A stretch of DNA of 64,000 bases, taken from NCBI GenBank assembly GCA_016212095.1, contig JACRHH010000018.1, positions 3,126 to 67,125 on the forward strand, given 5' to 3'. This DNA comes from Nitrospirota bacterium. GTDB taxonomy: Bacteria > Nitrospirota > Thermodesulfovibrionia > SZUA-242. This document shows, one piece after another, positions 1-20,200 of the stretch; within the stretch, counting starts at the first letter, position 1, and each line of letters starts with the position of its first letter. A model generated the notes under the pieces. The model saw only the letters and a program-made list of their open reading frames with translations. It ran no database searches and had not been told where the DNA came from. The position numbers were made by a program, and so were the translations under genes.

Positions 1-1
1 C

Positions 2-1907: not shown

Positions 1908-1922
1908 CCATCAGGAGCCCCC

Positions 1923-2762: not shown

Positions 2763-3169
2763 ACCTTACCGGAAAGGCCGATATGGTGGAATTCCGCTGT
2801 GACGTTCCGTATCCTGTCGAGTACAAGTCCGGCAGGCAGAGGAAAGGCCGCCACGAGGAACTGCAACTCTGCGCCCAAGCGGTCTGCCTTTCGGAAATGT
2901 TCGGCGTGACGGTGGATCGCGGCGCGATATATTGGCACGGCTCGCGCGAGCGGCGGGAAGTTCCCTTCACTGACTCACTGCGTCTGGAGGTGGAACACGT
3001 TGCAGCCGCAGTGCATGAAATGATGGCGGGTTCGACGATTCCCCCGCCTGTAAACGACAAGCGATGCCGCGATTGCTCGCTCAGGGAATCGTGCCTGCCG
3101 AATGTGGTGGCGGCAAAGGGAAGAAGCCGCAAGGCTGTGCTGGAACTTTTCGAGGTGATGACGCCATGA
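2624..3169 (+). CDS. cas4: Cas4 RecB-like nuclease, 5'-truncated (first ATG at 2660; frame open from 2624)
   Basis: RecB-nuclease-type D..E.K pattern (GKADMVE...VEYKSG), QLCAQAVCLSEMFG, C-terminal Cys cluster CRDCSLRESC; the N-terminal region that normally carries the first Cys ligand is absent (in-frame stop at 2621-2623). Confidence 0.65.
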   Translation, partial: GVEQVWNENLYTMRGRDVHEHVHEESSHDLAGVRMERALPVWSRRLNLTGKADMVEFRCDVPYPVEYKSGRQRKGRHEELQLCAQAVCLSEMFGVTVDRGAIYWHGSRERREVPFTDSLRLEVEHVAAAVHEMMAGSTIPPPVNDKRCRDCSLRESCLPNVVAAKGRSRKAVLELFEVMTP

Positions 3170-4200
3170 AACAACTCCTTAACACGCTGTACGTCATGAC
3201 GCAGGGCGCGTATGTCTGCCTAGACCACGAAACGGTGAAGGTGGAGGTGGAGGGAAAAGTTCGGATGCAGGTTCCGCTTCATCACATCGGCTCGATTGTG
3301 ACGATGGGCAACGTAATGCTAAGCCCGTTTATCATGGGCCGATGCGCCGACGACGGCAGGGCGATTGTGATTCTGGGCAGAAGCGGACGCTTCAAGTGCC
3401 GTGTTGTCGGCAAGACAAGCGGCAACGTGCTTCTTCGTCATGCCCAGCACGAGGCGGTGCGCGATGGCGGGAAATCGATCCCGATTGCCCGCAACATCGT
3501 GGCCGGGAAGGTGAAAAACGCCAGACATATTCTACTGCGCGGAGCGCGCGAGGCCGACAACGCCGATGACGCAGGCGTTCTGAAAAACGCAGCCGACATT
3601 CTGGCCAATACGCTGTTTCATCTCAAGGATTGCGCCGACATCGACCGGGTGCGCGGCATAGAGGGCGAGGCGGCGAACGCCTATTTCGGCGTATTCGACC
3701 GGATGGTGAAGGAAGAAGCGCGCACGGTTTTCAGGTTCGACGGAAGAAACCGCCGTCCGCCGCTCGATCCGATGAACGCACTGCTGTCGTTTCTCTACAC
3801 GCTTTTGCTGTCCGACTGCGTAAGCGCGGCTGAAGGCGTGGGCCTCGATTCCCAGATGGGTTTTCTGCATGTGATGCGGCCCGGACGCCCGTCGCTGGGG
3901 CTGGACATGATGGAGGAATTCCGCGCCGTTCTGGCCGACAGGCTGGCGCTTACACTGATAAACCGCCGTCAGATAACGGAAAATCATTTCGAGCCAAGGC
4001 CCGGCGGCGCGGTTTACTTAAACGAAGACGGGCGCAAAACAGTTGTGACCGAATACCAGAAGCGCAAGCAGGACGAGCTTCATCATCCGCTGCTTGATGA
4101 AAAAGCGCCGTTCGGGCTTGTTCCGCACATTCAGGCCCGGCTTCTTGCGCGTCACCTTCGCGGCGACATGGATGAATATGTGCCGTTTTTGTATTCCTGA
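3166..4200 (+). CDS. cas1: Cas1 integrase (type I-C-like)
   Basis: ATGA overlap with cas4 stop; 344 aa; N-terminus [26 protein letters not shown] typical of Cas1; position cas4-cas1-cas2-array. Confidence 0.85.
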
Positions 4201-4214
4201 GCGAGGGCAAAACT

Positions 4215-4508
4215 GTGTGGGTGCTTGTATCGTATGACGTTTCCACCGAAACGCCGGAAGGCCGCAAAAGGCTCCGCCGCGTGGCGCAGATATGCAAGAA
4301 CTATGGACAGCGAGTGCAGAAATCGGTGTTCGAGTGTCAGGTGAACGAGATGAAGTTCGAGGAACTGCGGCGCGAGCTATTGCGGATTATCAATAAGGAT
4401 GAGGATAACCTGCGGCTCTATCGCCTGACGGAGCCACGGGAGCGGCATGTGGAAAGCTACGGCTTGATCAAAACGATATTGTTTGACGACGAGCCGCTGA
4501 TTGCGTAG
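4215..4508 (+). CDS. cas2: Cas2 (GTG start)
   Basis: 97 aa, [10 protein letters not shown]...[23 protein letters not shown] typical Cas2; directly after cas1 and before the repeats. Confidence 0.8.
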
Positions 4509-4598
4509 CGCGAACCTGTTGTGCATGAGAAAATGCCGGGAGGTTCGCGGATGGCGCAACAGCTTGATTATTGGAACATTTATTTGAAGCCGTCAAGC

Positions 4599-4794
4599 GT
4601 TGCGTCCGGTCGCAAGACCGGGCGAGGATTGAAACGCGGAAAGGATGGTATAACTTGCTGTAAGTTCACGCTACAACAGCGTGAGCGTCGCGCCCGGTCG
4701 CAAGACCGGGCGAGGATTGAAACCGGTCGTCTCTCTCCGCGCTGGTTATCAGGCACGGTCGCGCCCGGTCGCAAGACCGGGCGAGGATTGAAAC
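4599..4794 (+). CRISPR. CRISPR mini-array: three 37-bp repeats (4599-4635, 4687-4723, 4758-4794), spacers of 51 and 34 bp
   Basis: Consensus GTCGCGCCCGGTCGCAAGACCGGGCGAGGATTGAAAC with 9-bp stem/GCAA loop and ATTGAAAC 3' handle typical of type I-C; first repeat has 2 mismatches. Confidence 0.75.
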
Positions 4795-4805
4795 TGCGCG
4801 GCGGC

Positions 4806-4823
4806 GCATCGCAATGCGTCTCT
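4806..4823. repeat. Partial inverted copy of the palindromic element that is tandemly repeated at 6042-6131
   Basis: GCATCGCAATGCGTCTCT matches the reverse complement of the 30-bp unit core (GACGCATCGCAATGCGTCT). Confidence 0.3.
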
Positions 4824-5343
4824 ACCTGCACGCGGCCTGCACCGTTGAGATTGGCAGAAATAGTTGCAGTGGATGATCTGGAATCGCCAGAAACCCGAAT
4901 TGCTCATAAAATCGTCCGGCTTCGTCATCCTTTGCATCGACAAAGAGGCCGATTACGCCTGCATGTCCAGCGATAAGCGATGTCCGGTGAACCGCATCGG
5001 CAAGCAGCAGTTTGCCGTACCCTTTGCCCTGTTCCTTCCGGGATACCGCAAGACGGGCAAGACGCACCGCAGGCAGACCATGCAGCGGGTATTTCCGGGC
5101 ATAATCATCAGGAAGTTGCTCGACAGACAATTCGCAGAGCGTGAGAGTGTAGAAGCCGAGCATGGCTGGCGTGCCGGCGGTCAGCACGAATGTCCGTGAA
5201 ATACCTTTCGACGAATGCTGACGCGCGATTGTCCGGAGGAACTCGTTCAGCGCCGGAACGCCGCAGTCGAAACCGTTACGGTCATGGATGCGGTCAAGAA
5301 GGGTTATTTCCGGCAATGGTTTTATTGTGCTGACGCATGGCAT
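4822..5343 (-). CDS. GNAT-family acetyltransferase toxin (TacT-like)
   Basis: 173 aa; acetyl-CoA motif RLAVSRKEQGKGYGKLL; paired with an upstream DUF1778-type gene. Confidence 0.7.
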   Translation of the reverse strand: MPCVSTIKPLPEITLLDRIHDRNGFDCGVPALNEFLRTIARQHSSKGISRTFVLTAGTPAMLGFYTLTLCELSVEQLPDDYARKYPLHGLPAVRLARLAVSRKEQGKGYGKLLLADAVHRTSLIAGHAGVIGLFVDAKDDEAGRFYEQFGFLAIPDHPLQLFLPISTVQAACR

Positions 5344-5584
5344 CCATCAGGTATTCGTTCGGTTCAGGCGGATTCTCGATGAGCGAAAACACCGCATCCG
5401 CCGAAGCGGTTGAAAGCTTGATTATGCGCTCTCCCTCAAGAATCGCATTGGCTTTCTCAAGGGCGGACTGGACGACAAACTGGTTAAGCGTTGCGCCAAC
5501 CGATTGAGCGGCTTCCAGTATCCGCTCATACACGGCTGTCGGCATACGGGCCGGTATTCGTTCCTCGGCGATTGTGCGTGCCAT
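5294..5584 (-). CDS. DUF1778-family antitoxin (TacA-like), start at the internal ATG 5584
   Basis: MARTIAEERIPARMPTAVYERILEAAQSVGATLNQFVVQSALEKANAIL; GGAGGTGA ribosome-binding site before the ATG; overlaps toxin start. Confidence 0.65.
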   Translation of the reverse strand: MARTIAEERIPARMPTAVYERILEAAQSVGATLNQFVVQSALEKANAILEGERIIKLSTASADAVFSLIENPPEPNEYLMDAMRQHNKTIAGNNPS

Positions 5585-5681
5585 TGATGTCACCTCCGGA
5601 TAGATTTTAATAAGGTGGCGCCAAAATGGCAACTTTATAATCGTTTCCGCCCGGCATATACTAGACCGTGCAAGGATCGAA

Positions 5682-6041
5682 ATGTTGAAGTCTAATTCTG
5701 ATGGCATTGTCTACTCCACCGGGCAGGGCAGAATCTGTTCCGCCTGCGGCAGGCCCGCGGCCAACTGCGAATGCGGCCGCAGGCAAGCGCCGCCAAATGG
5801 CGATGGAATCGTCCGTGTCGGCATCTCGACGAAAGGCCGCAAGGGCAAGGGTGTTACCGTGATCAGCGGCGTTCCCCCTGGCGAAGGCGGTCTCGACGAG
5901 TTGGCGCGGCGGCTCAAGCAGAAATGCGGGGCCGGAGGAACCGTGAAGGACGGCGTTATCGAAATTCAGGGCGATTTCCGCGACATCCTGGTGGCGGAAC
6001 TGACGAAACAGGGCTACAAGGTGAAACGCGCTGGCGGGTAG
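5682..6041 (+). CDS. yciH: Translation initiation factor SUI1/YciH family protein
   Basis: GKGVTVISGV...KCGAGGTVKDGVIEIQGDFRD..L...GYKVKRAGG matches the SUI1 fold signature. Confidence 0.7.
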   Translation: MLKSNSDGIVYSTGQGRICSACGRPAANCECGRRQAPPNGDGIVRVGISTKGRKGKGVTVISGVPPGEGGLDELARRLKQKCGAGGTVKDGVIEIQGDFRDILVAELTKQGYKVKRAGG

Positions 6042-6131
6042 AGACGCATTGCGATGCGTCTCTGCTGATCAAGACGCATTATGATGCGTCTCTGCTGATC
6101 AAGACGCATTATGATGCGTCTCTACTGTTCG
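6042..6131. repeat. Three tandem copies of a 30-bp unit, each containing an 8-bp-arm palindrome
   Basis: AGACGCATT(GC/AT)GATGCGTCTCTGCTGATCA x3 immediately after the yciH stop. Confidence 0.8.
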
Positions 6132-6201
6132 TACATTACCCGTCCGCAGTCGCGCATGTCGTAGCCGCCCCATTTCCAACCCATTCCCTATAATTCTATA
6201 A

Positions 6202-7623
6202 TTGCGGATTGCGGCCATGACCGCCTTACGCCACGCCATCAGGAGAGATGATTTGAAGATACTGAAAGCCGCGCTGCTTTTTCTTGCCATCACGGTTGTT
6301 TCGATCCGGACACCCGCCCTTGCCGCCATGAACATTGTCGAGGAATCGCTGGAAAACGGCCTGAAGGTGCTGGTTCTCGAAGACCACAAGGCCCCGGTTG
6401 CCACGTTTCAGGTCTGGTATCGCGTGGGCGCAATCGACGATCCCTCCGGAGCAACCGGAGCGAGCCACCTTCTTGAGCACATGATGTTCAAGGGCACGAA
6501 GAACTTCGGGCCGAAGACGTTCTCGCAGACCATAAACCGCGCCGGCGGAACCGACAACGCGTTCACCTCGCACGATTACACCGCCTATCACGAAACGCTT
6601 TCGTCAGACAGAATAGGCATCGCCATCAAGCTTGAGGCCGACCGGATGCGGAATCTCTTGCTCGATCCGGCGGAGGTCAAGACTGAGCTTGAGGTGGTGA
6701 AGGAAGAGCGGAGAATGCGCTACGAGGACAATCCGCAGAGCCTCGTTCACGAAAGCACCATGGCTGCGGCCTTCATGACGCATCCGTACAGAAACCCGGT
6801 GATCGGCTGGATGGCCGACCTGAACGACATGACAGCGGAAAAGCTGGCCGCTCATTACCGCCGGTATTACGCGCCAAACAACGCGGTGATAATCGTGATA
6901 GGCGATGTTGACGCGAAAAAGATCATCAGCGATATTCGCGTTTCCTACGGGCATATTCCGAAAAGCGCCGGAGTTGAAAGGATGTCGATGAACGAGCCGC
7001 CCCAAAACGGCGAGCGGCGGGTTTTCGTGAAGAAAGAAGCCCAGCTTCCGTACATCGCCTCCATTTACAAAATGCCGTCTTTCCCCGATCCCGACTCTTT
7101 CCCGCTCGACGTGCTCTCGATGATTCTCTCAGAGGGTAAAAGCTCGCGCCTCTACCGGGCGCTGGTTTACGAAAAGCGGCTTGCGCTCTCTGTGGACACC
7201 GGCTACGACGGAGTGGGGCGCGGCCCGGCCACGTTTTACGTCGGCGGAACAGTCGCGCCGTCCGACACCCCGGCGGGCAACAGCGCCGAGACGCTTGAGG
7301 CCGCCATCCGCGAGGAGACCGAGCGGATAAAGCGCGAGCATCCCAGCGAGCGCGAGGTTCAAAAAGCGAAAAACCAGGTGGAGGCCTCGTTCATCATGGA
7401 GCAGGATTCGCTCTATTCGCGGGCGATGACCATCGGAAGCATGGAGATGGCAGGCGGCTGGCGGCTTATCGACCGCTATCTGGACGGCATTCGCGCGGTT
7501 GCGGCGGATGATGTCTCAAGGGTTGCGCGGAAGTATCTGATAGACGACCACAAGACAACCGGCGTGCTTGTTCCGGTTCAGGCGGCAAATTCGGTTGCGG
7601 ATGGCGAAAAGGAGAAAAAATAA
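6202..7623 (+). CDS. M16-family zinc peptidase (catalytic subunit), secreted
   Basis: HLLEHMMFKGT inverted zinc-binding motif (HxxEH); N-terminal signal-like hydrophobic segment. Confidence 0.8.
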   Translation: MRIAAMTALRHAIRRDDLKILKAALLFLAITVVSIRTPALAAMNIVEESLENGLKVLVLEDHKAPVATFQVWYRVGAIDDPSGATGASHLLEHMMFKGTKNFGPKTFSQTINRAGGTDNAFTSHDYTAYHETLSSDRIGIAIKLEADRMRNLLLDPAEVKTELEVVKEERRMRYEDNPQSLVHESTMAAAFMTHPYRNPVIGWMADLNDMTAEKLAAHYRRYYAPNNAVIIVIGDVDAKKIISDIRVSYGHIPKSAGVERMSMNEPPQNGERRVFVKKEAQLPYIASIYKMPSFPDPDSFPLDVLSMILSEGKSSRLYRALVYEKRLALSVDTGYDGVGRGPATFYVGGTVAPSDTPAGNSAETLEAAIREETERIKREHPSEREVQKAKNQVEASFIMEQDSLYSRAMTIGSMEMAGGWRLIDRYLDGIRAVAADDVSRVARKYLIDDHKTTGVLVPVQAANSVADGEKEKK

Positions 7624-8957
7624 TGAACCGGATCATAACCAGATATTTTTGCATTGCCGCCATGCTGCTTTCGGCGCTTGCTTCAAACGCCGCCGCATCG
7701 GAGCCGCTTGCCGCGCGCGAGACGCTTCCTGGCGGGCTTGTGCTGATGCATTCGCAGAAATCGACGCTTCCTATAGTTCGCATCGTTGTCGGCATAGGCG
7801 CGGGACAGTTGGCCGATCCGCCGGGCAAGGCCGGGCTGGCAAGCCTCACTGCGATGCTGCTGAAGGAAGGAACGACGCGTCGCACCTCGAAGCAGATCAG
7901 CGAGGAGATCGAGTTCGTGGCCGGTTCGCTTTCGGCCTCCGGCGGCGGCGAGTACGCCACCATCAGCCTGTCGGTGCTTAAAAAAGACCTTGATACCGGT
8001 TTTGAGATCATGTCCGACATCATGCTTAACCCCGCGTTTTCCAACGAAGAGATTACGCGCAAGAAGGCTCAGGTGAAAGGCGCGATACGGCGGCGGATGG
8101 AAGACCCCGGCGATGTGGCATCAAAGGCGTTCATGAAGGAACTGTATCCGAACCACCCGCTCGGCTTTCCGTCGGAGGGAACTCCGGAGACGCTCGACGC
8201 CATAACGCGTGACGACATCGTGTTGTTTCACCGCGCATGGTATGCGCCGGACAACGCATGGATGGCGGTTGTGGGCGACGTGACAAGGCAGGAGGCGGGC
8301 GCGCTGATCGACAAATATTTAAACGGCTGGACAGCCCGCGGCGCGAAACTCGCATTTCCTCCCGTGCCGCGGCTTGCCAAAACGTCGGTTATCGCCATCG
8401 ACAAAGACATAACGCAGGCCAATATAATTCTTGGCCACGCCGGGCCAACCCGCAACGATCCCGACTACTACGCGGCGCTAGTGATGAACTACATCCTTGG
8501 CGGCGGCGGATTTTCGTCGCGCATGATGGACAGCATCCGCGACAACATGGGCCTTGCCTACGACGTCGGCAGCCATTTCGCGCCCGGCAAGCATAACGGC
8601 GTGTTCACCGTGGACATGCAGACCAAAAACGCGTCGGCCAAGACCGCTATTGACGAAGCGCTGCGCCAGATCGAGCGCATCCGCGCGGAGCCCGTGGCCG
8701 ACATGGAGCTTGCCGGAGCGAAGGCGTACATAACCGGCAGCTTCCCGCTTCGCATGGACACCTCCGCCAAGATAGCCAACCTGCTGTCGTCTGTCGAATA
8801 CTTCGGCCTTGGAATGAACTATGTTGACGACTACCGCAGGGCGGTTGAGGCGGTCACGAAGGAGGATGTGCTTCGCGCGGCGAAGAAGTTTCTGCACCCC
8901 GACAGATATGTGCTGGTTGTCGTGGCTAAACAGGCCGAGGCCGGAATGGTGAAATAG
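7623..8957 (+). CDS. M16-family peptidase, non-catalytic partner subunit
   Basis: M16 architecture without HxxEH; TAATG junction with the upstream gene; signal peptide. Confidence 0.7.
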   Translation: MNRIITRYFCIAAMLLSALASNAAASEPLAARETLPGGLVLMHSQKSTLPIVRIVVGIGAGQLADPPGKAGLASLTAMLLKEGTTRRTSKQISEEIEFVAGSLSASGGGEYATISLSVLKKDLDTGFEIMSDIMLNPAFSNEEITRKKAQVKGAIRRRMEDPGDVASKAFMKELYPNHPLGFPSEGTPETLDAITRDDIVLFHRAWYAPDNAWMAVVGDVTRQEAGALIDKYLNGWTARGAKLAFPPVPRLAKTSVIAIDKDITQANIILGHAGPTRNDPDYYAALVMNYILGGGGFSSRMMDSIRDNMGLAYDVGSHFAPGKHNGVFTVDMQTKNASAKTAIDEALRQIERIRAEPVADMELAGAKAYITGSFPLRMDTSAKIANLLSSVEYFGLGMNYVDDYRRAVEAVTKEDVLRAAKKFLHPDRYVLVVVAKQAEAGMVK

Positions 8958-9057
8958 GGGGGGATGTTATTCTGATTTGCATGCGAAGCCTTCCGGATTT
9001 GAATCAAGCCCTGTAAGGGCGGAATAATAATGTTGACCGGGGCGCAAGCCCGGTTAT

Positions 9058-9336
9058 TCATCTGCTAATTGGAATAACGCCGTTTCGCATACGCAAATCG
9101 TCCAGGAGTTCTGACGGCACTTTATCGTGGGTTTTGTGGACGATTATCCGCAGGTCGCTCGAAACCCGCACAGACCAGAAGTTTTTATCCCTGGCATTGT
9201 CGGGCTTGTGGAACCGCATTCCCGAGCTGGCCGGGTTAAGTTGCAGATCGAAGGCGGTGGTCTTTGTGGCCTTCTGCTCGTCGCCGGTAAGTTTGGCGAG
9301 GCTGTCGGTGAAGGTGTCGGAGATGCGGAAGTTCAT
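9058..9336 (-). CDS. Small protein (93 aa) of unknown function; C-terminal half RelE/ParE-like by eye
   Basis: MNFRISDTFTDSLAKLTGDEQKATKTTAFDLQLNPASSGMRFHK...FWSVRVSSDLRIIVHKT; first ~43 codons duplicated at 10708-10842; no strong ribosome-binding site. Confidence 0.4.
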   Translation of the reverse strand: MNFRISDTFTDSLAKLTGDEQKATKTTAFDLQLNPASSGMRFHKPDNARDKNFWSVRVSSDLRIIVHKTHDKVPSELLDDLRMRNGVIPISR

Positions 9337-9373
9337 GTCATCGTTTTTCGAACTGATGATTTTGAAATAATTG

Positions 9374-10564
9374 TTACTGCATCCAATCGTCACCAGGCAT
9401 GATTCGATGCATAAACTCATCGAACATAGGGACTGTGAATATTGTATCGCCATGATGGGGACTCCAAACCATGCCTTTGGAGATTAACTGGCTTCTGGTC
9501 GGACCGAGAGAAGTTACTTCACGTCCCAGCTTTTCAGCAATGCCTCCTGACCGATGCGGTCCGGGGCCAAGTTCAGCCATCGCACGGAGGTATATTTTCT
9601 CTGAGGGGGTGAGTCTATCAAACCTTACACGAAAGAAACTTTCATCGAGTGCGGCTATGGCGGAGGCTGACGCGTTTTTAACGTCCTCTTCTGTGATTGG
9701 CGACGCTTCCGCTGCATCCCACGAATGCTTGCCCCATTCCTGCACAAAATAAGGGTAGCCGCGCGTCTCTTTCACAATGAGGTCTAATGCTTCAGGGGTC
9801 ACTTCGACACCCTGATCTTTCGCCGGTTTCGCAATGGCCAGTTTTGTCGATTCCGGAGTAAGCGGCCCGATATCGGGAAAGTCGAACAGCCGTTCCGCAT
9901 AAGATTTCGCTCGACCCATCCGGCCCCTCAATTGCGGTAATCCAGCACCCACGAGAACGACAGGAAGACGGCGCTGGGCGGTACGATGCAGTGAGGTGAT
10001 GAGGGCCGCGAGCTCTTCCTCCCTTACATACTGTAACTCATCAGCAAAGATCACCAAGGCCGTGCCTGCTGCTTGCGCAGCTGCTCCGGCAGCCTCCAGC
10101 AACGCCTGCAGATCATGCTCCAGATCACCGTTGTCTGCCAGTCCAGGCTCAGGATCAAAGTCAAATCCCACCTCGATGTCTTCATATTTCACTTTGAGTG
10201 ACTTGGCGAATCCCGCCAGTGCCCTGAGCGCCCTCTGGGCAAGACTCTTGGCTTTCTCATTCCGTGAAAGCCTGAGCAGTGCCTGGCGTAACTGGGGAGA
10301 TAGGAGTGCCGGTAATGAACGATTTTCAGGAGCCTCTACCCGCAATGTCTGAATGCCGGTTCCTTCCGCATCATCTCTCATTCGATCCAGCAATACTGTT
10401 TTACCTACGCCTCGAAGTCCTACCATCAGGATACTCTTTGTGGGCAGACCTCGCCGCACGCGTTCGATGGCCACGCGGACAGTTTCCCGCACATCATCCC
10501 GGCCGGCGAGTTCTGGCGGCGGCGTACCCGCACCAGGAGCAAAAGGGTTTGTTATGGGATCCAT
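9374..10564 (-). CDS. AAA+ ATPase (ORC1/Cdc6-like)
   Basis: Walker A GLRGVGKT, Walker B VIFADELQ, 396 aa. Confidence 0.65.
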   Translation of the reverse strand: MDPITNPFAPGAGTPPPELAGRDDVRETVRVAIERVRRGLPTKSILMVGLRGVGKTVLLDRMRDDAEGTGIQTLRVEAPENRSLPALLSPQLRQALLRLSRNEKAKSLAQRALRALAGFAKSLKVKYEDIEVGFDFDPEPGLADNGDLEHDLQALLEAAGAAAQAAGTALVIFADELQYVREEELAALITSLHRTAQRRLPVVLVGAGLPQLRGRMGRAKSYAERLFDFPDIGPLTPESTKLAIAKPAKDQGVEVTPEALDLIVKETRGYPYFVQEWGKHSWDAAEASPITEEDVKNASASAIAALDESFFRVRFDRLTPSEKIYLRAMAELGPGPHRSGGIAEKLGREVTSLGPTRSQLISKGMVWSPHHGDTIFTVPMFDEFMHRIMPGDDWMQ

Positions 10565-10707
10565 CGAAGAATTATACCAAAATTAGCAAGTTTATAAAAC
10601 AAACATAAACCTGATAAATTTACTCAAATTAAACCCGCCTGATTTTGTTCAATAAAATGATACCCTAAAAACCTTCATCACCTCATCCCCCCCAATGAGT
10701 TATTTAC

Positions 10708-10842
10708 TCATCGGTAGAACCGCATTCCCGGACTGGCCGGGTTCAGTTGCAGATAGAAGGCGGTGGTCTTTGCGGCCTTCTGCTCGTCGCCGGTCAGTTT
10801 GACGAGGCTGTCGGTGAAGGTGTCGGAGATGCGGAAGTTCAT
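10708..10842 (-). pseudogene. Truncated paralog fragment of the 9058-9336 gene (first 44 codons then stop)
   Basis: About 130 bp nearly identical to 9199-9336 starting exactly at the ATG; followed by a relic resembling the 3' end of the methyltransferase gene. Confidence 0.45.
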
Positions 10843-10861
10843 GTGACAGCCAAGCAGCAAG

Positions 10862-11698
10862 TTACTCAGCCAATACTGGCTGTTGTGGATCGGCACCGAG
10901 GCTGATGTGATCCAGACGCCACTTCTTCAACGCCTTCGATTGGCGATAACTCATGGCTTCCTCGGAAATTACATCAACGTATCGAAGTTCTATTCCCTGC
11001 CAGTTGCCTGTTTCAGCGTTAAACAGCCTTGCCCTGAAAGCTTGTTCGATTTCAGCTTGCGCTTGATTGGCGGCGGCTTCCGCAGCATAAAAATCAGGCT
11101 CGGTCGTATGAAGGAGCGTTACGTCAAGCACATAAACATCATCAAGTCCTTCGTGGCATATCTCTTGCCCCTCGTCAACATCGAAAAATACAGCGGTAAT
11201 CATTTTGCCATGCGGTTTTACGGCTTTGGCAATCTTGTCTGATAACTTTGCGGCACTCAAGCGACGCTCAAATTCGTTCGGGAATGCAGATCGACGGTAT
11301 CGTGATGCCAGCCAAAGTTGAAAAGTAACAAGTTCCGAAGGAGAAAGCCGGGAATCATTATCTGGTGTAAAGTCTATGAGCGACTCTTTGAGAATGCTGC
11401 GTTTTTCTGCGGAAACAAATTCAGCCAGCAACGGCTTGTTGCCTTCGAACTCCAAATGGAGCGTCCGTGGCGATTTCGCATGTGTATTCAGGCCATTAAG
11501 TTTCTGAATCCGATACCCAACAATTACCTCTACATGTGGTTCCCTATCTGGGAGTTGGGTTAAATCGCAGTGATGAGTTGCAACGATAACCACCGTATCG
11601 CCGGGATGTGTCGGATGTATCAGACCAAGTGCTGCTACAGATTCACTTGCAAGCAAATGTCCTTGCCGCCATGGCGTATCCCTCGTCCATTCCGGCAT
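10862..11698 (-). CDS. Hypothetical protein, 278 aa, no recognisable motifs
   Basis: Long ORF co-directional with neighbours; visibly AT-richer than flanking genes. Confidence 0.45.
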   Translation of the reverse strand: MPEWTRDTPWRQGHLLASESVAALGLIHPTHPGDTVVIVATHHCDLTQLPDREPHVEVIVGYRIQKLNGLNTHAKSPRTLHLEFEGNKPLLAEFVSAEKRSILKESLIDFTPDNDSRLSPSELVTFQLWLASRYRRSAFPNEFERRLSAAKLSDKIAKAVKPHGKMITAVFFDVDEGQEICHEGLDDVYVLDVTLLHTTEPDFYAAEAAANQAQAEIEQAFRARLFNAETGNWQGIELRYVDVISEEAMSYRQSKALKKWRLDHISLGADPQQPVLAE

Positions 11699-11703
11699 GG
11701 CGG

Positions 11704-12378
11704 CTACTGCACCACGTCGTTTTCTGCCATCAGATCGGAATCGGCAGAGCTTTGAGACATTTTACGGTTGGCAAAACGCGCATCAAGGCGTTCTCTTTGA
11801 CTTGTCTCCTGTTCGACAATCTGGCGGAGTAACTGCGCGGCATCACGGGCCGATCCACCATCTTGAATCATCTCGAAAATATTCCTGCCATTGAATACCT
11901 TGCGTTTCAATAGAGCCCCATTAACCGGAATTCCTGCTTCGGCAAACATGTCAGCCGCAACTGCAAGTTCGCTCATCTTGGCTAAATGCTCGGGTGTGGG
12001 TTGCTCCCCCCTCAACCAGTTGTAAATTGTCTGGCGTGATACGTTAAAGGCCTTGGCGAGATCGGATATAGCAGGGGAAAGGACTTTGCGAATTTGCTCC
12101 ATGTCCTCGGCAGGTGTTCTTGCGGATACTGCCTTTACAGCGTTAGAACGTATGAAACCGGATGATAGTAACTCATTATTTCGATGAAGCTGCAACCGGC
12201 CAAGATCGTCTGCAAAAGCACCCGTTCCTTGGGCAACCAGCAATCCAGCCGTAAATAAAGCAACCTTTGACAAGCTGCATACACATGAAGAAGCGCCAGT
12301 TGAATATGGTCGATCATTAAACCATCCACCTTGCCTGGAATATCCCGCTTCCATTCTGTAATCTCCTGTTATTCCCAT
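11704..12378 (-). CDS. XRE-family helix-turn-helix protein (true start possibly the ATG at 12102, giving 133 aa)
   Basis: HTH segment LSPAISDLAKAFNVSRQTIYNWLRG; the upstream part of the ORF may be non-coding. Confidence 0.5.
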   Translation of the reverse strand: MGITGDYRMEAGYSRQGGWFNDRPYSTGASSCVCSLSKVALFTAGLLVAQGTGAFADDLGRLQLHRNNELLSSGFIRSNAVKAVSARTPAEDMEQIRKVLSPAISDLAKAFNVSRQTIYNWLRGEQPTPEHLAKMSELAVAADMFAEAGIPVNGALLKRKVFNGRNIFEMIQDGGSARDAAQLLRQIVEQETSQRERLDARFANRKMSQSSADSDLMAENDVVQ

Positions 12379-13163
12379 GAATTAAGGGCAAATTGCGTGA
12401 CTGTTGCCCGAAACGATTTCTCGATTTCAACGTGAAGCGCAACCAGTCTGGAAGCAATTGTTTCAAGGCTGAAGGCCTCGCGTTGTGCATAAAATGCATC
12501 GGAATCAATTATTGCGTGACGGCCTTCCTGCGCGGTAAATCGTGGATGTATCTGCGGTGCAAACGGAATTATTTCCTGTGGCAGTCCGACCCGGCCATCT
12601 TGAATAATTACCCGCGATACAAGTTGTCCACTTGCGTTAATAGTGACTGTTTCACTGTATGTATGTGCCAGTTTGCCGTCAAGCTTATGCGAAAGCCCTA
12701 ACACTTCTTGTGCAAGGTAGTCAGAAAACGACTCATCGGGTTTTGGCAGCACGGCATCAAAATAACGCAGCCCAACACGCTCGGTAAAATCAAGTCGCAC
12801 AACGTCATGAATAGTGCCCAATCCATCCAGCAGCGTCTTGAAAAACGTCTCGGAAGTGTCATAATCGGTTGTCTGAAGAGCCAGCGCGTTATGTTCCAGA
12901 ACAAACTCTGTGGTGCGATTAATATTTCCGAAAACGCAACGAGCCTGAGGAATGAATGACGGTTTTGGGGCCTGACTTCCGTCACTTGGCGAGCCAAATT
13001 GCAAGACGATTTTTTGAATTGTTTCCTGTTTAAAATCCGGAAAGTGTGCAGCCCTCATCCGTTCCTGAATGGTTGGCAAATACCCCTCCATTTGAAGAAC
13101 AGGATTGAACTGAACTTGTGCCACAGTAAAGTAGACCGGCGCGTTTTTCATTTTCTTGCCCAT
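12369..13163 (-). CDS. Hypothetical protein, 264 aa (tentatively TIGR04255-like)
   Basis: ATG with GGAGG ribosome-binding site; N-terminus MGKKMKNAPVYFTVAQVQFNP; family assignment is from memory only. Confidence 0.45.
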   Translation of the reverse strand: MGKKMKNAPVYFTVAQVQFNPVLQMEGYLPTIQERMRAAHFPDFKQETIQKIVLQFGSPSDGSQAPKPSFIPQARCVFGNINRTTEFVLEHNALALQTTDYDTSETFFKTLLDGLGTIHDVVRLDFTERVGLRYFDAVLPKPDESFSDYLAQEVLGLSHKLDGKLAHTYSETVTINASGQLVSRVIIQDGRVGLPQEIIPFAPQIHPRFTAQEGRHAIIDSDAFYAQREAFSLETIASRLVALHVEIEKSFRATVTQFALNSWE

Positions 13164-13182: not shown

Positions 13183-13223
13183 GGTTTACACTGAGGTTTA
13201 CACTTTACACCCAAGTTGACACT
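13183..13223. promoter_or_regulatory. Iterated direct repeats TT(T/G)ACAC upstream of the 264-aa gene
   Basis: GGTTTACACT at 13183-13192 and 13195-13204, TTTACAC 13204-13210, TTGACACT 13216-13223, just upstream of the ribosome-binding site on the minus strand. Confidence 0.3.
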
Positions 13224-13270
13224 ATTGCAAACAATGAACATCCACACCGTTGATGCGCCTCAAATTCCAG

Positions 13271-16057
13271 TTACACCCGAAACACCTTCATAACCTCATC
13301 CCCCAAATGATTAATCACCTTCACCGCAATCCGCCCGGTTTTCGGCTTTTCAAATGGTCGCGATGTGTCGCTATTCAGCGTAGCCCAGGCGTCTTCGTTG
13401 ATCTCGGCTTTGAGAGTGGTTTTCAGCGCCTTGTACGGGTCGTTTGCTCCAAGGAAGTAGGCGTGGCGGACGAAGAAGCTTTCTTCATTATAATCTGTGT
13501 CGATGAACCAGCAGGCTATTCCTTCGGCGCCGTCGCTGCGGACTTCGCCGGTGTTGGGGTGGAACACGTCCACGCCGTTGACTTTGACCCGCACTTGTCC
13601 GTCTTCGGCATCGAGAATATCAATATCCGGCTCGCCGAAGATGACGAAGAGGTTGCCCTTGCCGGTGTTCTTGAGGTCGTCTGCCATGTGTAGGTCGGCG
13701 TTCATGCGAGCCTTGAGCACGGGGATGCGGCCAAGTTTGTTGAATTCCGACGAATGGGCGTCGTAGTTGAAGGCGCAGGTGATCAGCGCGTCGAAACCGG
13801 CGTCGCCGGCCTCGCGGGCGGCGGCCACCAGATCGGGGCGGGAGACTGTGCCGAATTCGGGGCCGATGAAGATGGCGGCGCGTTTTTCACCGCCAGCATC
13901 CGCAAAGCGTCCTTCGGCGCAGATAAGATAGCCCGGCCAAGGGGTTAGCGCTGTGAAGATGACTTTATCTTCCTTGTGCGCCTGTTGAACCCCGGCTGTC
14001 TTGAGGTTTTCCAGAATCATCTGTACGAAGTTCCGCTCCGTGCCGTAGCCTTCCTTCGGTTCCGCCACGGTGTCGATCAATTCGTCGTCCACTCCCACAG
14101 CCAGAACCCGGTGCGGCAACAGGCTCTCCACGGTGAACGGCCCGGCAACGCGAACACTTTTCTTGTCGTCGTAGGGTTTATCGTAGAGATATTCAAACTC
14201 GGCCTTGGCGGCGATGGATGCGTCGATTGCCTTTTGCCGGGCGATGCGTTGCCGCCACCAGTCGGCGTGCAGCTTCTTCGCCGCCTCCGGCCATTTTTCG
14301 TCGGCCTCGCGGGGAATTTCCCACTCCTGCCAATTTTTACCGAGTGACTGGTTAAGCTGCTGGCGCAATGGCTCCAGCGTCTGTTGGAACTTTTCCCAGA
14401 TAACGTCGATTTCGGCGTTGTTGGCGATGGATTTTAGGGTGATGTGCGGCACGCGCTCATAAACAAAGCCCTGCCGGATGTCGCCACGAGTGGGCTGGGT
14501 CGACGGCAAGGTTCGGGTGATCTCGGCTTCCTTGCGTTGGCCGTCGGGCGAGTCAGCCAGCAGATAGAAAGGGTAGCGCGCTCCCATGATCCGGGCACGG
14601 GCCAGCGCCAAAGCAACGCGCGAGGTGTCGATGGTGATCCAGCGGCGGCCCCACTGTTCAGCTACATAAGCAGTAGTGCCTGAACCGCAGGTTGGGTCGA
14701 GAACCAAGTCGCCGGGGTCGGTCGCCAAAAGAATGCAGCGCGCAATGACCTTCTGGCCTGTTTGAACAACGTATGTCTTGTCCTCGGAAAATCCGGTCAT
14801 CTTTACGTCGTTCCAATAGTTTGCAATTGGAACAACTTCGAAGTCTTTCAAAAATCGTTTGTACATGAGAGATTTGCCAATTGGCCTTAAACGCCCAGTT
14901 TTCGCAAGCTGCGTCAGGCCCTTGGCATCGGTCTTAAACGTGCCCTTGCCAGGAGAAAAAGCTACACCGTTGTAGATAAAAGACGTGACGTCGGTTCCTT
15001 GTGCTGGTCGCTGGCTGGTCAAGTTGTCACAAGCAAAAACTTTCGTCTTATCTATGTTGCCGCCGTTTCCTTCTATCTCACTAGAATTAAGCCGTCGATC
15101 TACGCCATCGCCTTCATCAAACCAAGTGTATTGGGTAGTTCCCGCTTCGCCTAGGACTTTGAGTCGAAATGGTGGTCTAAATTTGAGTGCCGCACGATCT
15201 TTGGCAAACCAAAGGATGTAATCACTAATCGAAGCAAGGCCTTCTGTCGAGGTGCTGCTCGTTTTCTCGAATGAGATTTCTGACACAAAATTCTCCTCCC
15301 CAAACACCTCATCCATCACCGCCCTCACCCGATGAACATTCTCATCCCCAATCTGCACAAAGATCGACCCGGAATCCGTCAATAAATCCCGTGCCACAGT
15401 AAGACGGTCACGCAGATAAGTCAGATACGAATGAATCCCATCCCGCCAAGTATCGCGGAACGCCTTGACCTGTTCCGGCTCGCGGGTGATGTGGCCGACG
15501 TTGCCATCCTTCACGTCGCGGCTGGTGGTGCTCCACTGAAAGTTGGAGTTGAACTTGATGCCGTAGGGCGGATCAAAGTAGATGCACTGCACCTTGCCGC
15601 GCAGACCTTCGCGCTCGGCCAGCGATGCCATGACCTGGAGGCTGTCGCCAAGGATCATGCGGTTGGCCCAATGGGCGTCGTGCTGGTAAAACTCGGTCTT
15701 GGCGCTCTCGCTTGGGAGCCCGTTGAAGTCGGCGAAGAGGTCAGGCTGAACCTGCCTGCTCTTTTCCTCACGGGTTTGACGCAACAGGTCATCGATCAAC
15801 ACCTTGGGGTGAACCTTCTCCTGAATGTAGAGAGGCGGGGCATGGACTACCAGATCAGACCAATCCTTTTCGTCCTTGCCGCGCCAGACGAGCTGTGGGT
15901 CGAGGTCGCGGTTGCGGCGTTCGTAGGCAACTCGCACCGGGCTTTTGTCCGCATCGTGCATTATCGACTGATGCTCGGCGGTGGGAATGTTCTTGCGTGT
16001 CGCGTCCTCGTGGGTGAGGGTTTCGACGGTGAGTGGGGTAATTGGTCTGTTGGCCAT
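13271..16057 (-). CDS. DNA methyltransferase, beta-class (Type III Mod-like), 928 aa
   Basis: Motif IV IYFDPPYG precedes motif I DPTCGSGTT; NRMILGDSLQVMASL resembles the Mod N-terminal region; long C-terminal extension. Confidence 0.75.
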   Translation of the reverse strand: MANRPITPLTVETLTHEDATRKNIPTAEHQSIMHDADKSPVRVAYERRNRDLDPQLVWRGKDEKDWSDLVVHAPPLYIQEKVHPKVLIDDLLRQTREEKSRQVQPDLFADFNGLPSESAKTEFYQHDAHWANRMILGDSLQVMASLAEREGLRGKVQCIYFDPPYGIKFNSNFQWSTTSRDVKDGNVGHITREPEQVKAFRDTWRDGIHSYLTYLRDRLTVARDLLTDSGSIFVQIGDENVHRVRAVMDEVFGEENFVSEISFEKTSSTSTEGLASISDYILWFAKDRAALKFRPPFRLKVLGEAGTTQYTWFDEGDGVDRRLNSSEIEGNGGNIDKTKVFACDNLTSQRPAQGTDVTSFIYNGVAFSPGKGTFKTDAKGLTQLAKTGRLRPIGKSLMYKRFLKDFEVVPIANYWNDVKMTGFSEDKTYVVQTGQKVIARCILLATDPGDLVLDPTCGSGTTAYVAEQWGRRWITIDTSRVALALARARIMGARYPFYLLADSPDGQRKEAEITRTLPSTQPTRGDIRQGFVYERVPHITLKSIANNAEIDVIWEKFQQTLEPLRQQLNQSLGKNWQEWEIPREADEKWPEAAKKLHADWWRQRIARQKAIDASIAAKAEFEYLYDKPYDDKKSVRVAGPFTVESLLPHRVLAVGVDDELIDTVAEPKEGYGTERNFVQMILENLKTAGVQQAHKEDKVIFTALTPWPGYLICAEGRFADAGGEKRAAIFIGPEFGTVSRPDLVAAAREAGDAGFDALITCAFNYDAHSSEFNKLGRIPVLKARMNADLHMADDLKNTGKGNLFVIFGEPDIDILDAEDGQVRVKVNGVDVFHPNTGEVRSDGAEGIACWFIDTDYNEESFFVRHAYFLGANDPYKALKTTLKAEINEDAWATLNSDTSRPFEKPKTGRIAVKVINHLGDEVMKVFRV

Positions 16058-16058: not shown

Positions 16059-17147
16059 CTATCGACTGCCTTCCATCATGGATTCCTTGGTCAAAATCGC
16101 ATTCAGCGCGAGGTTGATGTAGTAGTTTGTGCGCCCCTTTTTCTGCTTTTGGAGAAAGCCGCCCTGTGTCAAGGTGTCGAGATACTTGGTGGCGGTTAGC
16201 CGCGAAACTTTGAGATCACGTTCGACAAACTCGATTTTGGTGTAGGGGTGGGTAAAGAGGTTGTTGATCAAATCCTGACTGTAAAATTTGTATTGCGCAC
16301 GGATGCGGTGCTTGGCATCCATCAACGCTGCCTTGATGGCATGAATGGTTTCTATGGTATCGGTGGCGGTGGACTCTATGGCTGTGAGCATGTAAAGCGC
16401 CCACTCTTCCCAAGTGTTCTGTTCACGCACCGATTGCAGCAGGCGGTAATAGTCCGGCTTGGTGCGGACGATGTAGCGGCTGAGGTAGAGCACGGGAATG
16501 TCGAGCAGGCCTTCCTTGACCAGATAGAGGACGTTTATAATGCGCCCGGTGCGGCCATTGCCATCGTAGAACGGGTGAATGCTTTCAAACTGGTGATGGA
16601 TAAGCGCCATTTTGATGAGAGGGTCGGCTGCGAATAGCTCGCTATCGTTCATGAAGCGTTCCAGATCACGCATGAGTGCGACTATGGCTTCCGGTTCCTG
16701 CGGCGGTGTATAAACCGTCTGACCGGCGCCATTTTTTAGCGCAGTGCCTGGCAGCTTGCGGAATCCGGCGTTGTTCTGTTCCAGTTCGGCCTGTATCTGG
16801 ATGATGTGGTTGGCGGTGAGCAGTCCACTTCGGCGAACCTGTTCATACCCTACCCGCAGAGCCTGACGGTAGCGCAGCACCTCCTTGGCGGACGGGCTGG
16901 CCAGGTTTTCGGGAAAGAGATCATCCTGAAACAGCTCATCATGGGTGGTGACGATGTTCTCGATAGCGGAACTGTCCTTGGCCTCCTGCATACCAAGTGT
17001 GCTGATGAGAACGCCCTGATTGGGGATTGAAGCGGCCACCCCTTTGAGTTCGGCCAGTTTGCGGCTGGCTAATGTCAGCTTTTTGAGGATGGCTGGGGTA
17101 TCGAAGCGCTCGGTCGGCAGTTGTTCCAACGGCTGCATGGTGGTCAT
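16059..17147 (-). CDS. Fic/Doc-family protein
   Basis: Fic motif HPFYDGNGRTGR; 362 aa; sits between the res and mod genes. Confidence 0.8.
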   Translation of the reverse strand: MTTMQPLEQLPTERFDTPAILKKLTLASRKLAELKGVAASIPNQGVLISTLGMQEAKDSSAIENIVTTHDELFQDDLFPENLASPSAKEVLRYRQALRVGYEQVRRSGLLTANHIIQIQAELEQNNAGFRKLPGTALKNGAGQTVYTPPQEPEAIVALMRDLERFMNDSELFAADPLIKMALIHHQFESIHPFYDGNGRTGRIINVLYLVKEGLLDIPVLYLSRYIVRTKPDYYRLLQSVREQNTWEEWALYMLTAIESTATDTIETIHAIKAALMDAKHRIRAQYKFYSQDLINNLFTHPYTKIEFVERDLKVSRLTATKYLDTLTQGGFLQKQKKGRTNYYINLALNAILTKESMMEGSR

Positions 17148-17250: not shown

Positions 17251-20200
17251 TCATCGCAACTCTCCCCATTCCCCCTTCACGATATTTCCGATCATCTTGT
17301 CAAACTCCGCCGCTACCTTGGCATCGAAGTCGGACTCCATGCGGTAAACCTCGGTAAACTCGGCAAAGGCCCATCGGCCATAGCTTTTCAGGTTATTAAC
17401 GCCGGGAACCCAGTAGGTTTCCATGGTGGCCTTTTTCTCCTTGGCGTCCTCGCGGCGGTAGCCCTTGATCTCGACGATCAGGCGCAGCGGGTCATCTTCG
17501 CCATGTCCGTCGTCAACCAGAACGATGAAGTCGGGGATGTATTTCCGCGTTTCCGAGCCGTAACGGTATGGAACCTCAAGGCCAAGATTGTGATTTTTGA
17601 CGTAGGCTTTCACTTTGGGGTGCGCTTCGGCCACCCGGCAGAATTCGGCTTCCCAATCGCTGTCGAGGATAATCCAGTTGATCTGACAGCGGCGGGCGTC
17701 AGTCTCCCATCGATCCTTTTTGGATGTGTTAAAATTCACATGGATGGTGGAGCCGACGGGATTGTAGGGATCGAGTACCGCCTTAATGGGGCTTCCGCCG
17801 ATATGTTCACGGTTGATTCCCGCCATAATACGCTCGCAGGCCATGTCAGCAAGCATCTTGTATTTAAGCTGGGCCGGATATGTTTTCCCCGTGCAAACAA
17901 GGTAGTTATCAAGCCATTGTCTGGCAATGCGCTTTATCTGTCCGAATAGATGAAGCTGTGGTTCTCCGTTAGCATCACGCCACCTTGTCAAAAGAAGGTG
18001 TGAAGTTAATTCATAGACAACCTGTGAGTGTCTTATATCTCCCGTATGAACGAGGTTAAGATCAACCGATGCACCAATGATCCCGGAATTTCTGGTCTCT
18101 GTTGCACCAACCAGGTCGGGGGTCAACTCCATCACAGAGTCATCGTTGAACTTTGCGCTCAGCCGTTCCTCTGGAAGTTCGACGCGATAGCCTGCAACGC
18201 GGGGAAAGCGAATTTCGAGTGGATCTCGATCAGGTCGAACAGCCTTGACTTGAATGGTCTCGCGCGGAGGCTGAGGCGGCGCTATCACCGGCTTCGCGGT
18301 GAAGTCGAAGGGAATACCCAGCACATCGGCATATTCCACGTTGAACAGCCCTTCCTCATTCAGATCGTAAGACTGGCGGCGAAGCGCCCGGCCAATGACC
18401 TGCTCGCACAGAAGCTGAGTGCCGAAGGCGCGAACGCCCAAGACATGTGTCACGGTGCTGGCATCCCAACCCTCGGTAAGCATGGAGACAGAGACGACGC
18501 AGCGTATCGCTCCGCCCAACTGGCCGGGCTTGCCCACTGTATTCATAACCTCGCGGAGAAGAGTCACGTCATCGAGTTGTTTCCCTTGTTGCATTTCATC
18601 GGCGAGCTTTCCCCCGCGTTCTACGATCTCGCGGCGGAAGCGTTCAATCTCATCAGCAGCCATGCTGCGGAAGCTATCGTCGAGCGCTTCACCGGATTCG
18701 AGTTGCTCGCTGTCAATGAGTAGTGTGTTTGGACGAGCAAGCGGATTGCCGTGTTCATCGGTATTGCGGAACAACGGCAAACGGCCAAATTCGAGCTGGC
18801 TTGTGCCGTCCTTGTTCTGCCGTTGAAACCCGGAGATATAATCGTACACCAGCTTGGAGGTGGAGGTGTTATTGCAGACAATAATGAAACATGGCGGCAC
18901 CTTAATTCCACTCTGCTGCCAAAGGTTGTAAGTTTTTTCGTAATGCCCATAGAGCGCTTCCAGTGCGGTTTGCAATTGTGGCGGCAGGTCAAGCGGGTTC
19001 AGGGCCTCGGTCTTCCCGCGCCCCTTTTTCGGCATCTTTGTACGAATGTGTTCCCAGAGGTTGCGAAACATCGGCATTTCGCCGCCGGGGATGTTGTCGG
19101 CCACCGGCACGCGCGGGAGCTTTACGATGCCGCATTCGATGGCGTCCATAAGCGAAAAGTCGCTCATTGTCCAGGGGAACAGAGTTCCTTCGGCATAGCC
19201 GGAGCCGCTCAGGAAAAACGGGGTTGCCGACAAGTCGATTACGCGAGCAAGCCCAAGCGTCCGGTTTACGATTTCAATGCCTGAAATCCAGAGCCGGGCC
19301 GCTTCGTTGTTCTTTTCGGCTTCCTTCTTCTCGTCGCCGGTCAGGTTCTCATCTTTGGCGTTATGGTTTGGTTTCTCACGGTAGCAATGGTGCGCCTCGT
19401 CGTTCAACACCATGATGTTCTTCAACCCCATCAGGCCGGGCATCACCCGCTGAATCATCTGCCCTTCGGTTTCCAGTGTGTCAAGCTCCCCGCCGCCGCG
19501 CCCTTGCAGCAACAGGCGGCCACCCTTTGACAACTCCATCCGTTCGCGCAGCTTGAAGGCATGGTAATTGGTTATGACGATTTTTGCCTTTTGCAGTTCA
19601 TCCAGCATGTCGCCTGGTATAAGCTCCCGGCTTTGGTAGTAGCTGTCAGGATCGTTGGGCTGAAGCACCCGAAGCCTGTCGCGGATGGTCAAACCGGGGG
19701 TGACGACCAGAAATCCCCGCGTAAACCGCTTGCTGGTTGGCCGACGCACCGCATTTATGGTTTGCCACGCAATCAGCATCGCCATGACCGTGGTTTTGCC
19801 CGCGCCGGTAGCAAGTTTCAGCGCCAGACGCATCAACTCCGGGTTGGCGTCGTTGTTTGCGTTGGCCAGATGCTCAAGGAAGCGTTTCTTGTGTTTATCG
19901 ACATTTGGGGCAACTTCGGTAAGCCAGATGGCGGTTTCAACAGCCTCGATCTGACAAAAAAACGGACGGATGCCATTGAACTGATGATGTCGCCAATGCT
20001 TTAGCAATCGCTCTGTTTCCGGAGAAACATGCCAGTCTTTCGGATTTTTGAGGCTGCGCCACTGATCAACGTGTTGACGCAGTTCATTTATGATGGAAGT
20101 GGCATCATACTGCTGCCCCTCTGTTGAAAGCCCCAAACCTTCATCAAAGACGAAACGCGGCTGTTCAGCGGCAACCTTGCGCTTCTTCGGCTTGGGTATT

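Follow-up and report, generated by a model that had tools for sequence, protein, structure and literature searches.

A conserved three-gene operon with a putative four-box operator: a candidate tripartite toxin-antitoxin-like or abortive-infection module in a Nitrospirota genome

The 64,000-nucleotide (nt) stretch of contig JACRHH010000018.1 from a Nitrospirota bacterium (hereafter, the window) carries on its minus strand a compact set of three genes at 10862-13163 (hereafter, the trio). The trio is a conserved unit that recurs in several phyla. It is a self-contained, horizontally mobile operon with its own putative promoter and operator and may act as an autoregulated tripartite toxin-antitoxin (TA)-like or abortive-infection module; a rough probability of 0.45 is given to this reading. 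The proposed logic resembles that of known TA and abortive-infection modules; two of the component families and the operator are undescribed.

Gene 1 (12369-13163, minus strand) encodes a TIGR04255-family protein of 264 amino acids (aa). Gene 2 (11704-12354, minus strand) encodes an XRE-type helix-turn-helix (HTH) protein of 216 aa. Gene 3 (10862-11698, minus strand) encodes the putative effector, of 278 aa. The original prediction, made from the sequence of the window, had placed three co-directional minus-strand open reading frames (ORFs) between Type III-like restriction-modification (RM) genes and an AAA ATPase; their coordinates are confirmed, except for the start of gene 2. The 10-nt overlap that it had described at 12369-12378 is an artefact of taking the longest ORF (11704-12378). 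The alignment of homologs puts the conserved N-terminus at ATG 12354, which is the second methionine of the ORF and is preceded by AGGAG; gene 2 therefore has 216 codons and is separated from gene 1 by 14 nt. The trio is flanked on the minus strand by a Type III mod gene (upstream) and an AAA_16 ATPase gene (downstream). The original prediction had also judged the stretch by eye to be AT-richer than its flanks, and calculation bears this out: the G+C content (GC) is 0.482 in the trio and 0.556 in the window, a value as low being found in just 0.7% of equal-sized windows, and GC at third codon positions is 0.43-0.45 in the trio genes and 0.62-0.68 in the res, SoFic and mod genes nearby. The base composition of the trio is foreign and the operon is horizontally acquired.

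Relatives of gene 3 were located in 153 species-level genomes. Eighty loci were fetched (designated L plus a number where one must be told apart); with other look-ups, 90 sources were compared. The original prediction had proposed co-occurrence in other genomes as a check. The order 1-2-3 on one strand was found in 84 of the 90, and was also kept in branches that share only 21-28% identity. Median intergenic gaps are 12 and 9 nt; the proteins have about 264, 211 and 278 aa. The loci that do not conform are mostly contig ends or degraded copies. Gene 1 is missing from L060 and frameshifted in L063, and gene 3 is intact in both; gene 3 is frameshifted in L042; the sole remnant in L034 is a gene 3 whose 5′ part has been replaced. 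No locus was found with an intact gene 3 and without the HTH part of gene 2. A fourth conserved gene was sought beside the trio loci and none was found; since no other neighbour is conserved, the trio is regarded as autonomous. In Rugamonas sp. A1-17 (L021, 8705-9991), gene 1 is fused in frame to a gene 2 that lacks its first ~68 residues. This fusion, which is evidence of the Rosetta-stone type, argues for a physical complex of the two proteins; the absence of the N-terminal tail from it suggests that gene 1 is otherwise held to gene 2 by this tail.

The phyla in which the trio was found are Proteobacteria, Acidobacteriota, Desulfobacterota and Cyanobacteria, in addition to the Nitrospirae metagenome-assembled genome (MAG) of the window. 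Hosts include Gamma-, Beta- and Alphaproteobacteria, Desulfuromonadales/Geobacter, Acidobacteriota, Holophagae and Gloeobacterales. The trio is carried by Pseudomonas and Meiothermus megaplasmids and by six IMG/VR contigs. Very divergent trios were found in Acinetobacter baumannii, an Acinetobacter contig labelled as phage, a conjugative Vibrio plasmid, Chroococcidiopsis, Rhizobium and a Hyphomonadaceae MAG; gene 3 homology was still detectable in the divergent loci scanned with the hidden Markov model of the family. In a Klebsiella pneumoniae record labelled as a plasmid, the trio lies just beyond a prophage tape-measure gene. The relevant part of this record (L090, pVA126-339, 1-12831) has the chromosomal-looking genes xseA-guaB-guaA on the other side of the trio, and chromosomal or prophage sequence may have entered the record.

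A putative promoter and operator (13185-13230, minus strand) precede gene 1; their function is proposed from positional conservation. A −35-like hexamer (TTGCAA, 13230-13225) is followed, after a 17-nt spacer, by a −10-like hexamer (TAAAGT, 13207-13202). Four direct TGT(A/C)AA boxes lie at 13221-13216, 13209-13204, 13202-13197 and 13190-13185, with starts spaced by 12, 7 and 12 nt; boxes 2 and 3 overlap the −10-like hexamer. The boxes of the window read TGTCAA-N6-TGTAAA-G-TGTAAA-N6-TGTAAA, and the consensus across loci is TGTCAA-N6-TGTAAA-G-TGTCAA-N6-TGTCAA. This is the repeat array that the original prediction had seen ahead of the block: it is returned by Tandem Repeats Finder as 2.1 copies of 19 nt (13185-13223) and resolves into the four boxes. 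Of 71 unique upstream regions, 62 match at least 21 of the 24 box positions, in every case 48-73 nt 5′ of the start codon of gene 1. Among ~2.75 million positions (both strands, all loci), 70 sites score at least 21/24, and each of them precedes a gene 1. The boxes hardly vary and the spacers vary freely, as is characteristic of sites bound by proteins; conservation extends to the −35-like and −10-like hexamers. The array is a conserved operator-like element, with a putative role in regulation. The promoter pair matches 8 of 12 positions of the Escherichia coli consensus and was not called by the promoter scan. Distant branches have related direct repeats spaced by 12 nt, with a GTGTAA- or TGTGAA-like core, and some phage and plasmid copies retain boxes 1 and 2 alone.

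The product of gene 1 matches NCBIfam TIGR04255 over its whole length (residues 4-264 on positions 1-252 of a 252-position model; 141.7 bits, E=3.3e-41; the curated cut-off is 30 bits). The original prediction had seen no recognisable catalytic motif in it; it does belong to a named family, although one with no assigned function. The family entry gives neither function nor context. In the literature searched, no mention was found of TIGR04255, of its InterPro-style names, of the RefSeq accessions of the trio proteins or of a fixed three-gene module with an operator around TIGR04255 members, and nothing on MazF-like tripartite systems bore on the trio. In Klebsiella, Acinetobacter, Vibrio, Rhizobium and cyanobacterial plasmids, the NCBI annotation pipeline (PGAP) labels gene 1 of the trio with the TIGR04255 name. 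Neither Pfam nor PADLOC gave a match, the Pfam result being empty for 45 members at E<=1, and sequence and profile searches found no relative in the PDB. The AlphaFold2 model (pLDDT, the predicted local confidence, 85; pTM, the predicted template modelling score, 0.83) has two beta-alpha-beta4-alpha halves. The duplicated sheet is TBP-like or guanido-kinase-like; guanido kinase, McsB, TBP and AdoMetDC are among the folds matched, the best matches being enzymes such as guanido kinases and McsB. Twelve residues are invariant in homologs down to 21-28% identity: R37, T98, Y101, R129, G131, R133, Y134, D136, E171, R184, D220 and D222. They include the motifs R129-x-G-x-R133-Y134-x-D136 and D220-x-D222 and lie mostly on adjacent predicted strands of the second half. 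Together they may form a putative binding site for phosphate, a nucleotide or a metal.

The middle gene had been noted as carrying an XRE-type HTH, and this holds for the family: HTH_3 is matched by the protein of the window (E=8e-7) and by 66 of 77 family members in a Pfam scan. Among sequences of solved structure, CylR2 and the HigA-2 antitoxin come closest. In an alignment of 77 members, the conserved N-terminal tail contains a hydrophobic Gly/Ala-rich stretch that ends in GTG(G/A); the hydropathy of this stretch is borderline for a membrane helix. The central HTH motif is VSRQxxYNW. C-terminal to it are a conserved domain (LLKRK...G...GGSA) and an acidic tail (ADSDLxxxND). About 150 conserved residues lie outside the HTH. 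The only PADLOC match is a weak, HTH-level one to mad1. A likeness of the C-terminus to the DUF2384/ParS/MbcA domain was considered and is unsupported by Pfam.

In the product of gene 3, too, the original prediction had recognised no catalytic motif. No Pfam, NCBIfam or PADLOC match was found, and Pfam was empty at E<=1 for 45 members. Sequence and profile searches of the PDB gave nothing or spurious matches to T-cell receptors. The structural model has an N-terminal MazF/CcdB-like domain (about residues 1-118; SH3-like barrel fold), then a helical linker with WLAxRYxRxAFP and a C-terminal alpha/beta domain. Three motifs are universal: WxQG (10-13), [ST][HQ]xCD[IL] (C44-D45) and RYxRxAFP. The invariant residues are W10, Q12, G13, C44, D45 and R78. 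The family is of constant length, with 904 matches in one search, and forms 1,554 clusters at 50% identity; a separate search found 491 further proteins of a divergent branch, all unnamed. The C-terminal domain was considered as a minimal nucleotidyltransferase (MNT/Pol-beta), and this was rejected: of the catalytic pattern G[GS]...DxD that such an enzyme should have, the DxD is lost in distant homologs.

In the mechanism proposed for a tripartite TA-like or abortive-infection module, gene 2 would bind the four boxes that overlap the −10 and repress the operon, and its C-terminal domain and acidic tail would keep the gene 3 protein inactive. Gene 3 would be the effector; its MazF/CcdB-fold N-terminal domain, with Cys-Asp and WxQG, would probably act on RNA or another essential target. 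Gene 1 would dock on the N-terminal tail of gene 2 as a sensor or modulator; its invariant Arg/Asp/Glu cluster hints at enzymatic activity or at the binding of a nucleotide or phosphate. The effector would be freed by a trigger, for example when a phage infects the cell or when the element is lost. Gene content, strict synteny, close spacing, the conserved operator, the foreign composition, mobility and the predicted folds are observed here; we infer every biochemical step, be it the binding of DNA by gene 2, the toxicity of gene 3, its neutralisation by gene 2, the role of gene 1 or any defence phenotype.

The trio was compared with characterised systems. With type II TA systems (MazEF, Kid/Kis, CcdAB; HigBA) it shares a compact, mobile, autoregulated-looking operon in which an HTH protein gene lies immediately upstream of the gene of a MazF/CcdB-like-fold protein (median gap in the trio, 9 nt). 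The HTH protein has an acidic C-terminal tail, and HigA-2 is among its closest solved sequences. The trio differs from these systems in having three obligatory genes instead of two, gene 1 being without a counterpart there. Its effector, of 278 aa, has two extra regions and other invariant motifs, and in sequence it does not resemble PemK/MazF or CcdB; its operator consists of four direct repeats. In Xre-RES, ParST and MbcTA systems, the toxin has a RES domain, whereas gene 3 has no RES match; their antitoxin domain PF09722 (Xre_MbcA_ParS_C, DUF2384) is not among the 25 families that most of the 77 gene 2 proteins match.

Tripartite TA systems (toxin-antitoxin-chaperone, TAC, with HigB1-HigA1-SecB-like chaperone; CmdTAC; omega-epsilon-zeta; PaaR2-PaaA2-ParE2) share with the trio a third protein locked to a TA-like pair. 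The TAC antitoxin carries a chaperone-addiction segment, and the extra hydrophobic segment of gene 2 could, by analogy, dock the third protein. The omega repressor binds arrays of direct heptad repeats. The gene order of the trio is different: the regulator is encoded in the middle, where these systems have it as a gene of its own in first position. Gene 1 does not resemble SecB: no SecB was found among the listed fold matches, and an enzyme-like polar cluster is present instead.

The original prediction had proposed an unassigned defence or TA-like system. The XRE regulator with its operator, the fold of gene 3, the foreign composition and the mobility of the trio speak for this, as do its carriage by plasmids, at a prophage end and on viral contigs and the frequent, not universal, presence of defence neighbours; the proposal is limited in that no known defence model was matched. 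The proposal is partly supported. No homology to housekeeping enzymes, which had been named as evidence that would speak against such a system, was found for the 264-aa or the 278-aa protein; a lack of conserved co-occurrence, named as the other such evidence, is contradicted by the 84 of 90 loci. If the reading is true, the trio is an undescribed, widespread module present in at least four phyla, including on plasmids and in prophages of Klebsiella pneumoniae, Acinetobacter baumannii, Pseudomonas and Vibrio. Functional annotation is absent for two of its three protein families. TIGR04255 would gain a function and a genomic rule (fixed partners and an operator), the MazF fold would gain a new effector family, and the autoregulatory cis-element could be used as a handle to search for the system.

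Several observations weigh against this reading. Genes 1 and 3 match no family of PADLOC-DB v2.0.0 at E<=0.01, and a PHROGs scan of the three proteins found nothing beyond what Pfam, NCBIfam and PADLOC had given, that is, TIGR04255 and generic HTH families. The MazF/CcdB likeness of gene 3 is structural only, with Foldseek E-values of 0.007-0.05. The hhalign probability of its N-terminal domain against MazF/Kid/EndoA seeds is 0.2%, and jackhmmer found no PemK homologs among the trio loci for a better profile; the invariant WxQG and Cys-Asp, like RYxRxAFP, differ from the known functional motifs of MazF or CcdB, which in MazF include Arg/Thr of the beta1-beta2 and beta3-beta4 loops. The conserved polar cluster of gene 1 is enzyme-like, so that gene 1 could be the active component and gene 2 a mere regulator. 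XRE proteins bind inverted repeats as a rule, not direct repeats. The evidence from pseudogenes depends on about four loci. Many trio loci have ordinary metabolic neighbours.

A defence system of another kind is a possible explanation, held only tentatively. Genes 1 and 3 would then be a sensor/enzyme-effector pair acting on invading nucleic acid or a host target, and gene 2 a controller comparable to the C-protein of RM systems, limiting expression through the four-box operator. The invariant Arg/Asp/Glu/Tyr cluster of gene 1 is typical of a catalytic or ligand site and its fold is best matched by enzymes; operator and promoter overlap; and the trio is found in an RM cargo slot and in contexts with the cyclic-oligonucleotide signalling system CBASS and with ABC-3C. 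However, the ~150 conserved residues of gene 2 beyond the HTH exceed the needs of a controller, the fusion of genes 1 and 2 indicates a protein complex, and the mere 1-9 nt that separate gene 2 from gene 3 suggest that the two proteins are made in a coupled way and in stoichiometric amounts.

An addiction or stability module is rather doubtful as an explanation. It would have the same architecture and would be selected for the maintenance of a plasmid, island or prophage, or for the exclusion of competitors, and not for phage defence. Trios on megaplasmids, on conjugative plasmids and at a prophage end fit it, as do the integrases, insertion sequence (IS) elements and resolvase that adjoin some trios and the stacking of the trio in a recombination-scarred cargo slot in the window. 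Most instances are nevertheless chromosomal, many without a visible mobile element. By sequence alone, this explanation is inseparable from that of a tripartite TA-like or abortive-infection module.

Slightly less credit is given to enzymatic control of the effector. TIGR04255 would be an enzyme of guanido-kinase/glutamine-synthetase fold, or a nucleotide sensor, that docks on the N-terminal tail of gene 2, the repressor-antitoxin, and covalently modifies gene 2 or the effector. This would release a MazF-fold effector whose invariant Cys-Asp/WxQG site has a chemistry new to this fold, and the trio would represent a new class of tripartite conflict module. A parallel may be drawn with the phosphorylation of CtsR by McsB or with type VII TA systems.

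It is improbable that the trio is an accessory of the Type III-like RM genes and the UvrD-like helicase, dependent on res, mod and the helicase. The trio does lie beside mod or res in the window and in L004, L005, L009, L014, L016 and L087, and a UvrD-like helicase of 689 aa follows in several of them. Among 148 immediate neighbours, however, only 6 are mod and 6 are UvrD, most trios having neither; res-mod-UvrD operons are complete without the trio; and in the window an intact trio lies beside a truncated helicase gene. One version of this explanation is a pairing like that of type II Gabija, in which GajB (a UvrD helicase, Walker A K252) is associated with GajC, a split MazF-like protein (PMC13069673). 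Type II Gabija is the nearest experimentally validated case of a MazF-like fold beside a UvrD helicase. In some trio loci, a MazF-like-fold protein is likewise encoded beside a UvrD helicase with a ~250-residue N-terminal extension; the Walker A lysine of the local helicase is K258. In contrast to type II Gabija, most trio loci are helicase-free and the helicase belongs to the res-mod-UvrD operon; type II Gabija has two genes, with no TIGR04255 or XRE partner described. It is reported in >1.5% of E. coli genomes (PMC13069673), whereas the trio gave no blastn match (distant sensitivity) in 5,426 E. coli genomes. Gene 3 is unlikely to be identical with GajC, from which it is set apart by gene context and distribution.

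A type III TA system, in which the upstream repeats would be the RNA antitoxin of a ToxN/CptN-like toxin encoded by gene 3, is effectively refuted by the size, position and folding of the repeats and the Rfam result: ToxIN and CptIN have RNA-antitoxin repeats of ~34-45 nt directly upstream of the toxin gene, with a terminator between, whereas the 19-nt, 2.1-copy repeats of the trio overlap the −10 and lie upstream of gene 1, so that two protein genes intervene before gene 3; no terminator was found between the repeats and a toxin gene, the repeat region has no RNA-structure signal (fold z-score 0.10) and no Rfam match, and four 6-nt boxes with free spacers are a pattern typical of protein binding.

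The island in which the trio lies is bounded by housekeeping genes: M16 peptidase genes end at 8957 on one side, and a DUF2064 gene, a glycosyltransferase gene and a ribonucleotide reductase gene begin from 20562 on the other. All the genes of the island given here are on the minus strand. The Type III-like res gene (17251-20433; ResIII and RE_endonuc) is separated from the Type III mod gene (13271-16057; PADLOC MTase_III, 1448 bits) by an inserted SoFic gene (16059-17147; PADLOC SoFic, E=2e-116). Downstream of the trio, the AAA_16/STAND-like ATPase gene (9374-10564) encodes 396 aa with weak nSTAND1 matches.

The position in a defence island given by the original prediction is true of the window; elsewhere the immediate neighbours are often ordinary genes, and this position does not define the module. 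The immediate neighbours that are defence or mobile-element genes comprise MqsA, AIPR, UvrD, Type III mod, a Type I S subunit, integrases, phage GPA, PIN/VapB, HEPN/MNT, CBASS, Mrr-STAND and DUF2326/CTD12/MC6-8. In L101 (486-3244) and L099 (10468-10873), trio neighbours include a CBASS operon (SMODS, E2-CBASS, patatin) and an Mrr_cat-AAA_16/nSTAND protein.

The gene that follows mod in related islands encodes the UvrD-like helicase of 689 aa, whose N-terminus is RelE-like. It is found at full length after the trio in L004, L005, L014, L016 and L087, and res, mod and the helicase gene form a contiguous operon without the trio on plasmids (L093, L094). Such complete operons indicate that the helicase belongs to the RM-like system; the res of this operon is named BPTD_3080-family endonuclease by PGAP. 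In the window, the helicase gene is reduced to a remnant ORF of 131 aa (9058-9453, minus strand), and the helicase is predicted to be inactivated. A 131-nt 5′ piece of the gene (start MNFRISDTFTDSL) is present twice, at 10714-10844 and 9208-9338 (94% identical). The first copy belongs to a 44-codon 5′ fragment of the helicase gene (10708-10842, minus strand), a junction scar outside the module. A second scar outside the module is a duplicate of the last 30 nt of mod (10662-10691, minus strand; GDEVMKVFRV), 90% identical to 13275-13304; the two copies of the mod end bracket the trio and the helicase fragment. The mod/helicase junction is a cargo slot, and two cargos are stacked in the window, the trio and the AAA_16 ATPase gene. 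The duplicated junctions around the trio indicate that variant islands recombined and the cassettes were stacked in this way. For RM operons of the BPTD_3080 type, this documents a slot between mod and the UvrD-like helicase gene in which defence cassettes are stacked as cargo.

The AAA_16 ATPase gene is a second, independent cargo. It has its own promoter-like site (10598-10571; near-consensus TTTATA-16-TATAAT with extended TG), and no PADLOC model matched its product. In L004, the same slot holds ABC-3C-like genes and the trio; these genes (CTD12, MC6/MC8, DUF2326) lie near the trio at 3182-6159. The res/mod gap takes other inserts in related islands, SLFN/AlbA_2 in L009 and Fic in L005. Elsewhere in the window, 2.9 copies of a 30-nt tandem repeat (6042-6127; 94% match) directly follow a SUI1/YciH-like gene (5682-6041), and each unit holds an internal palindrome, AGACGCATTATGATGCGTCT.

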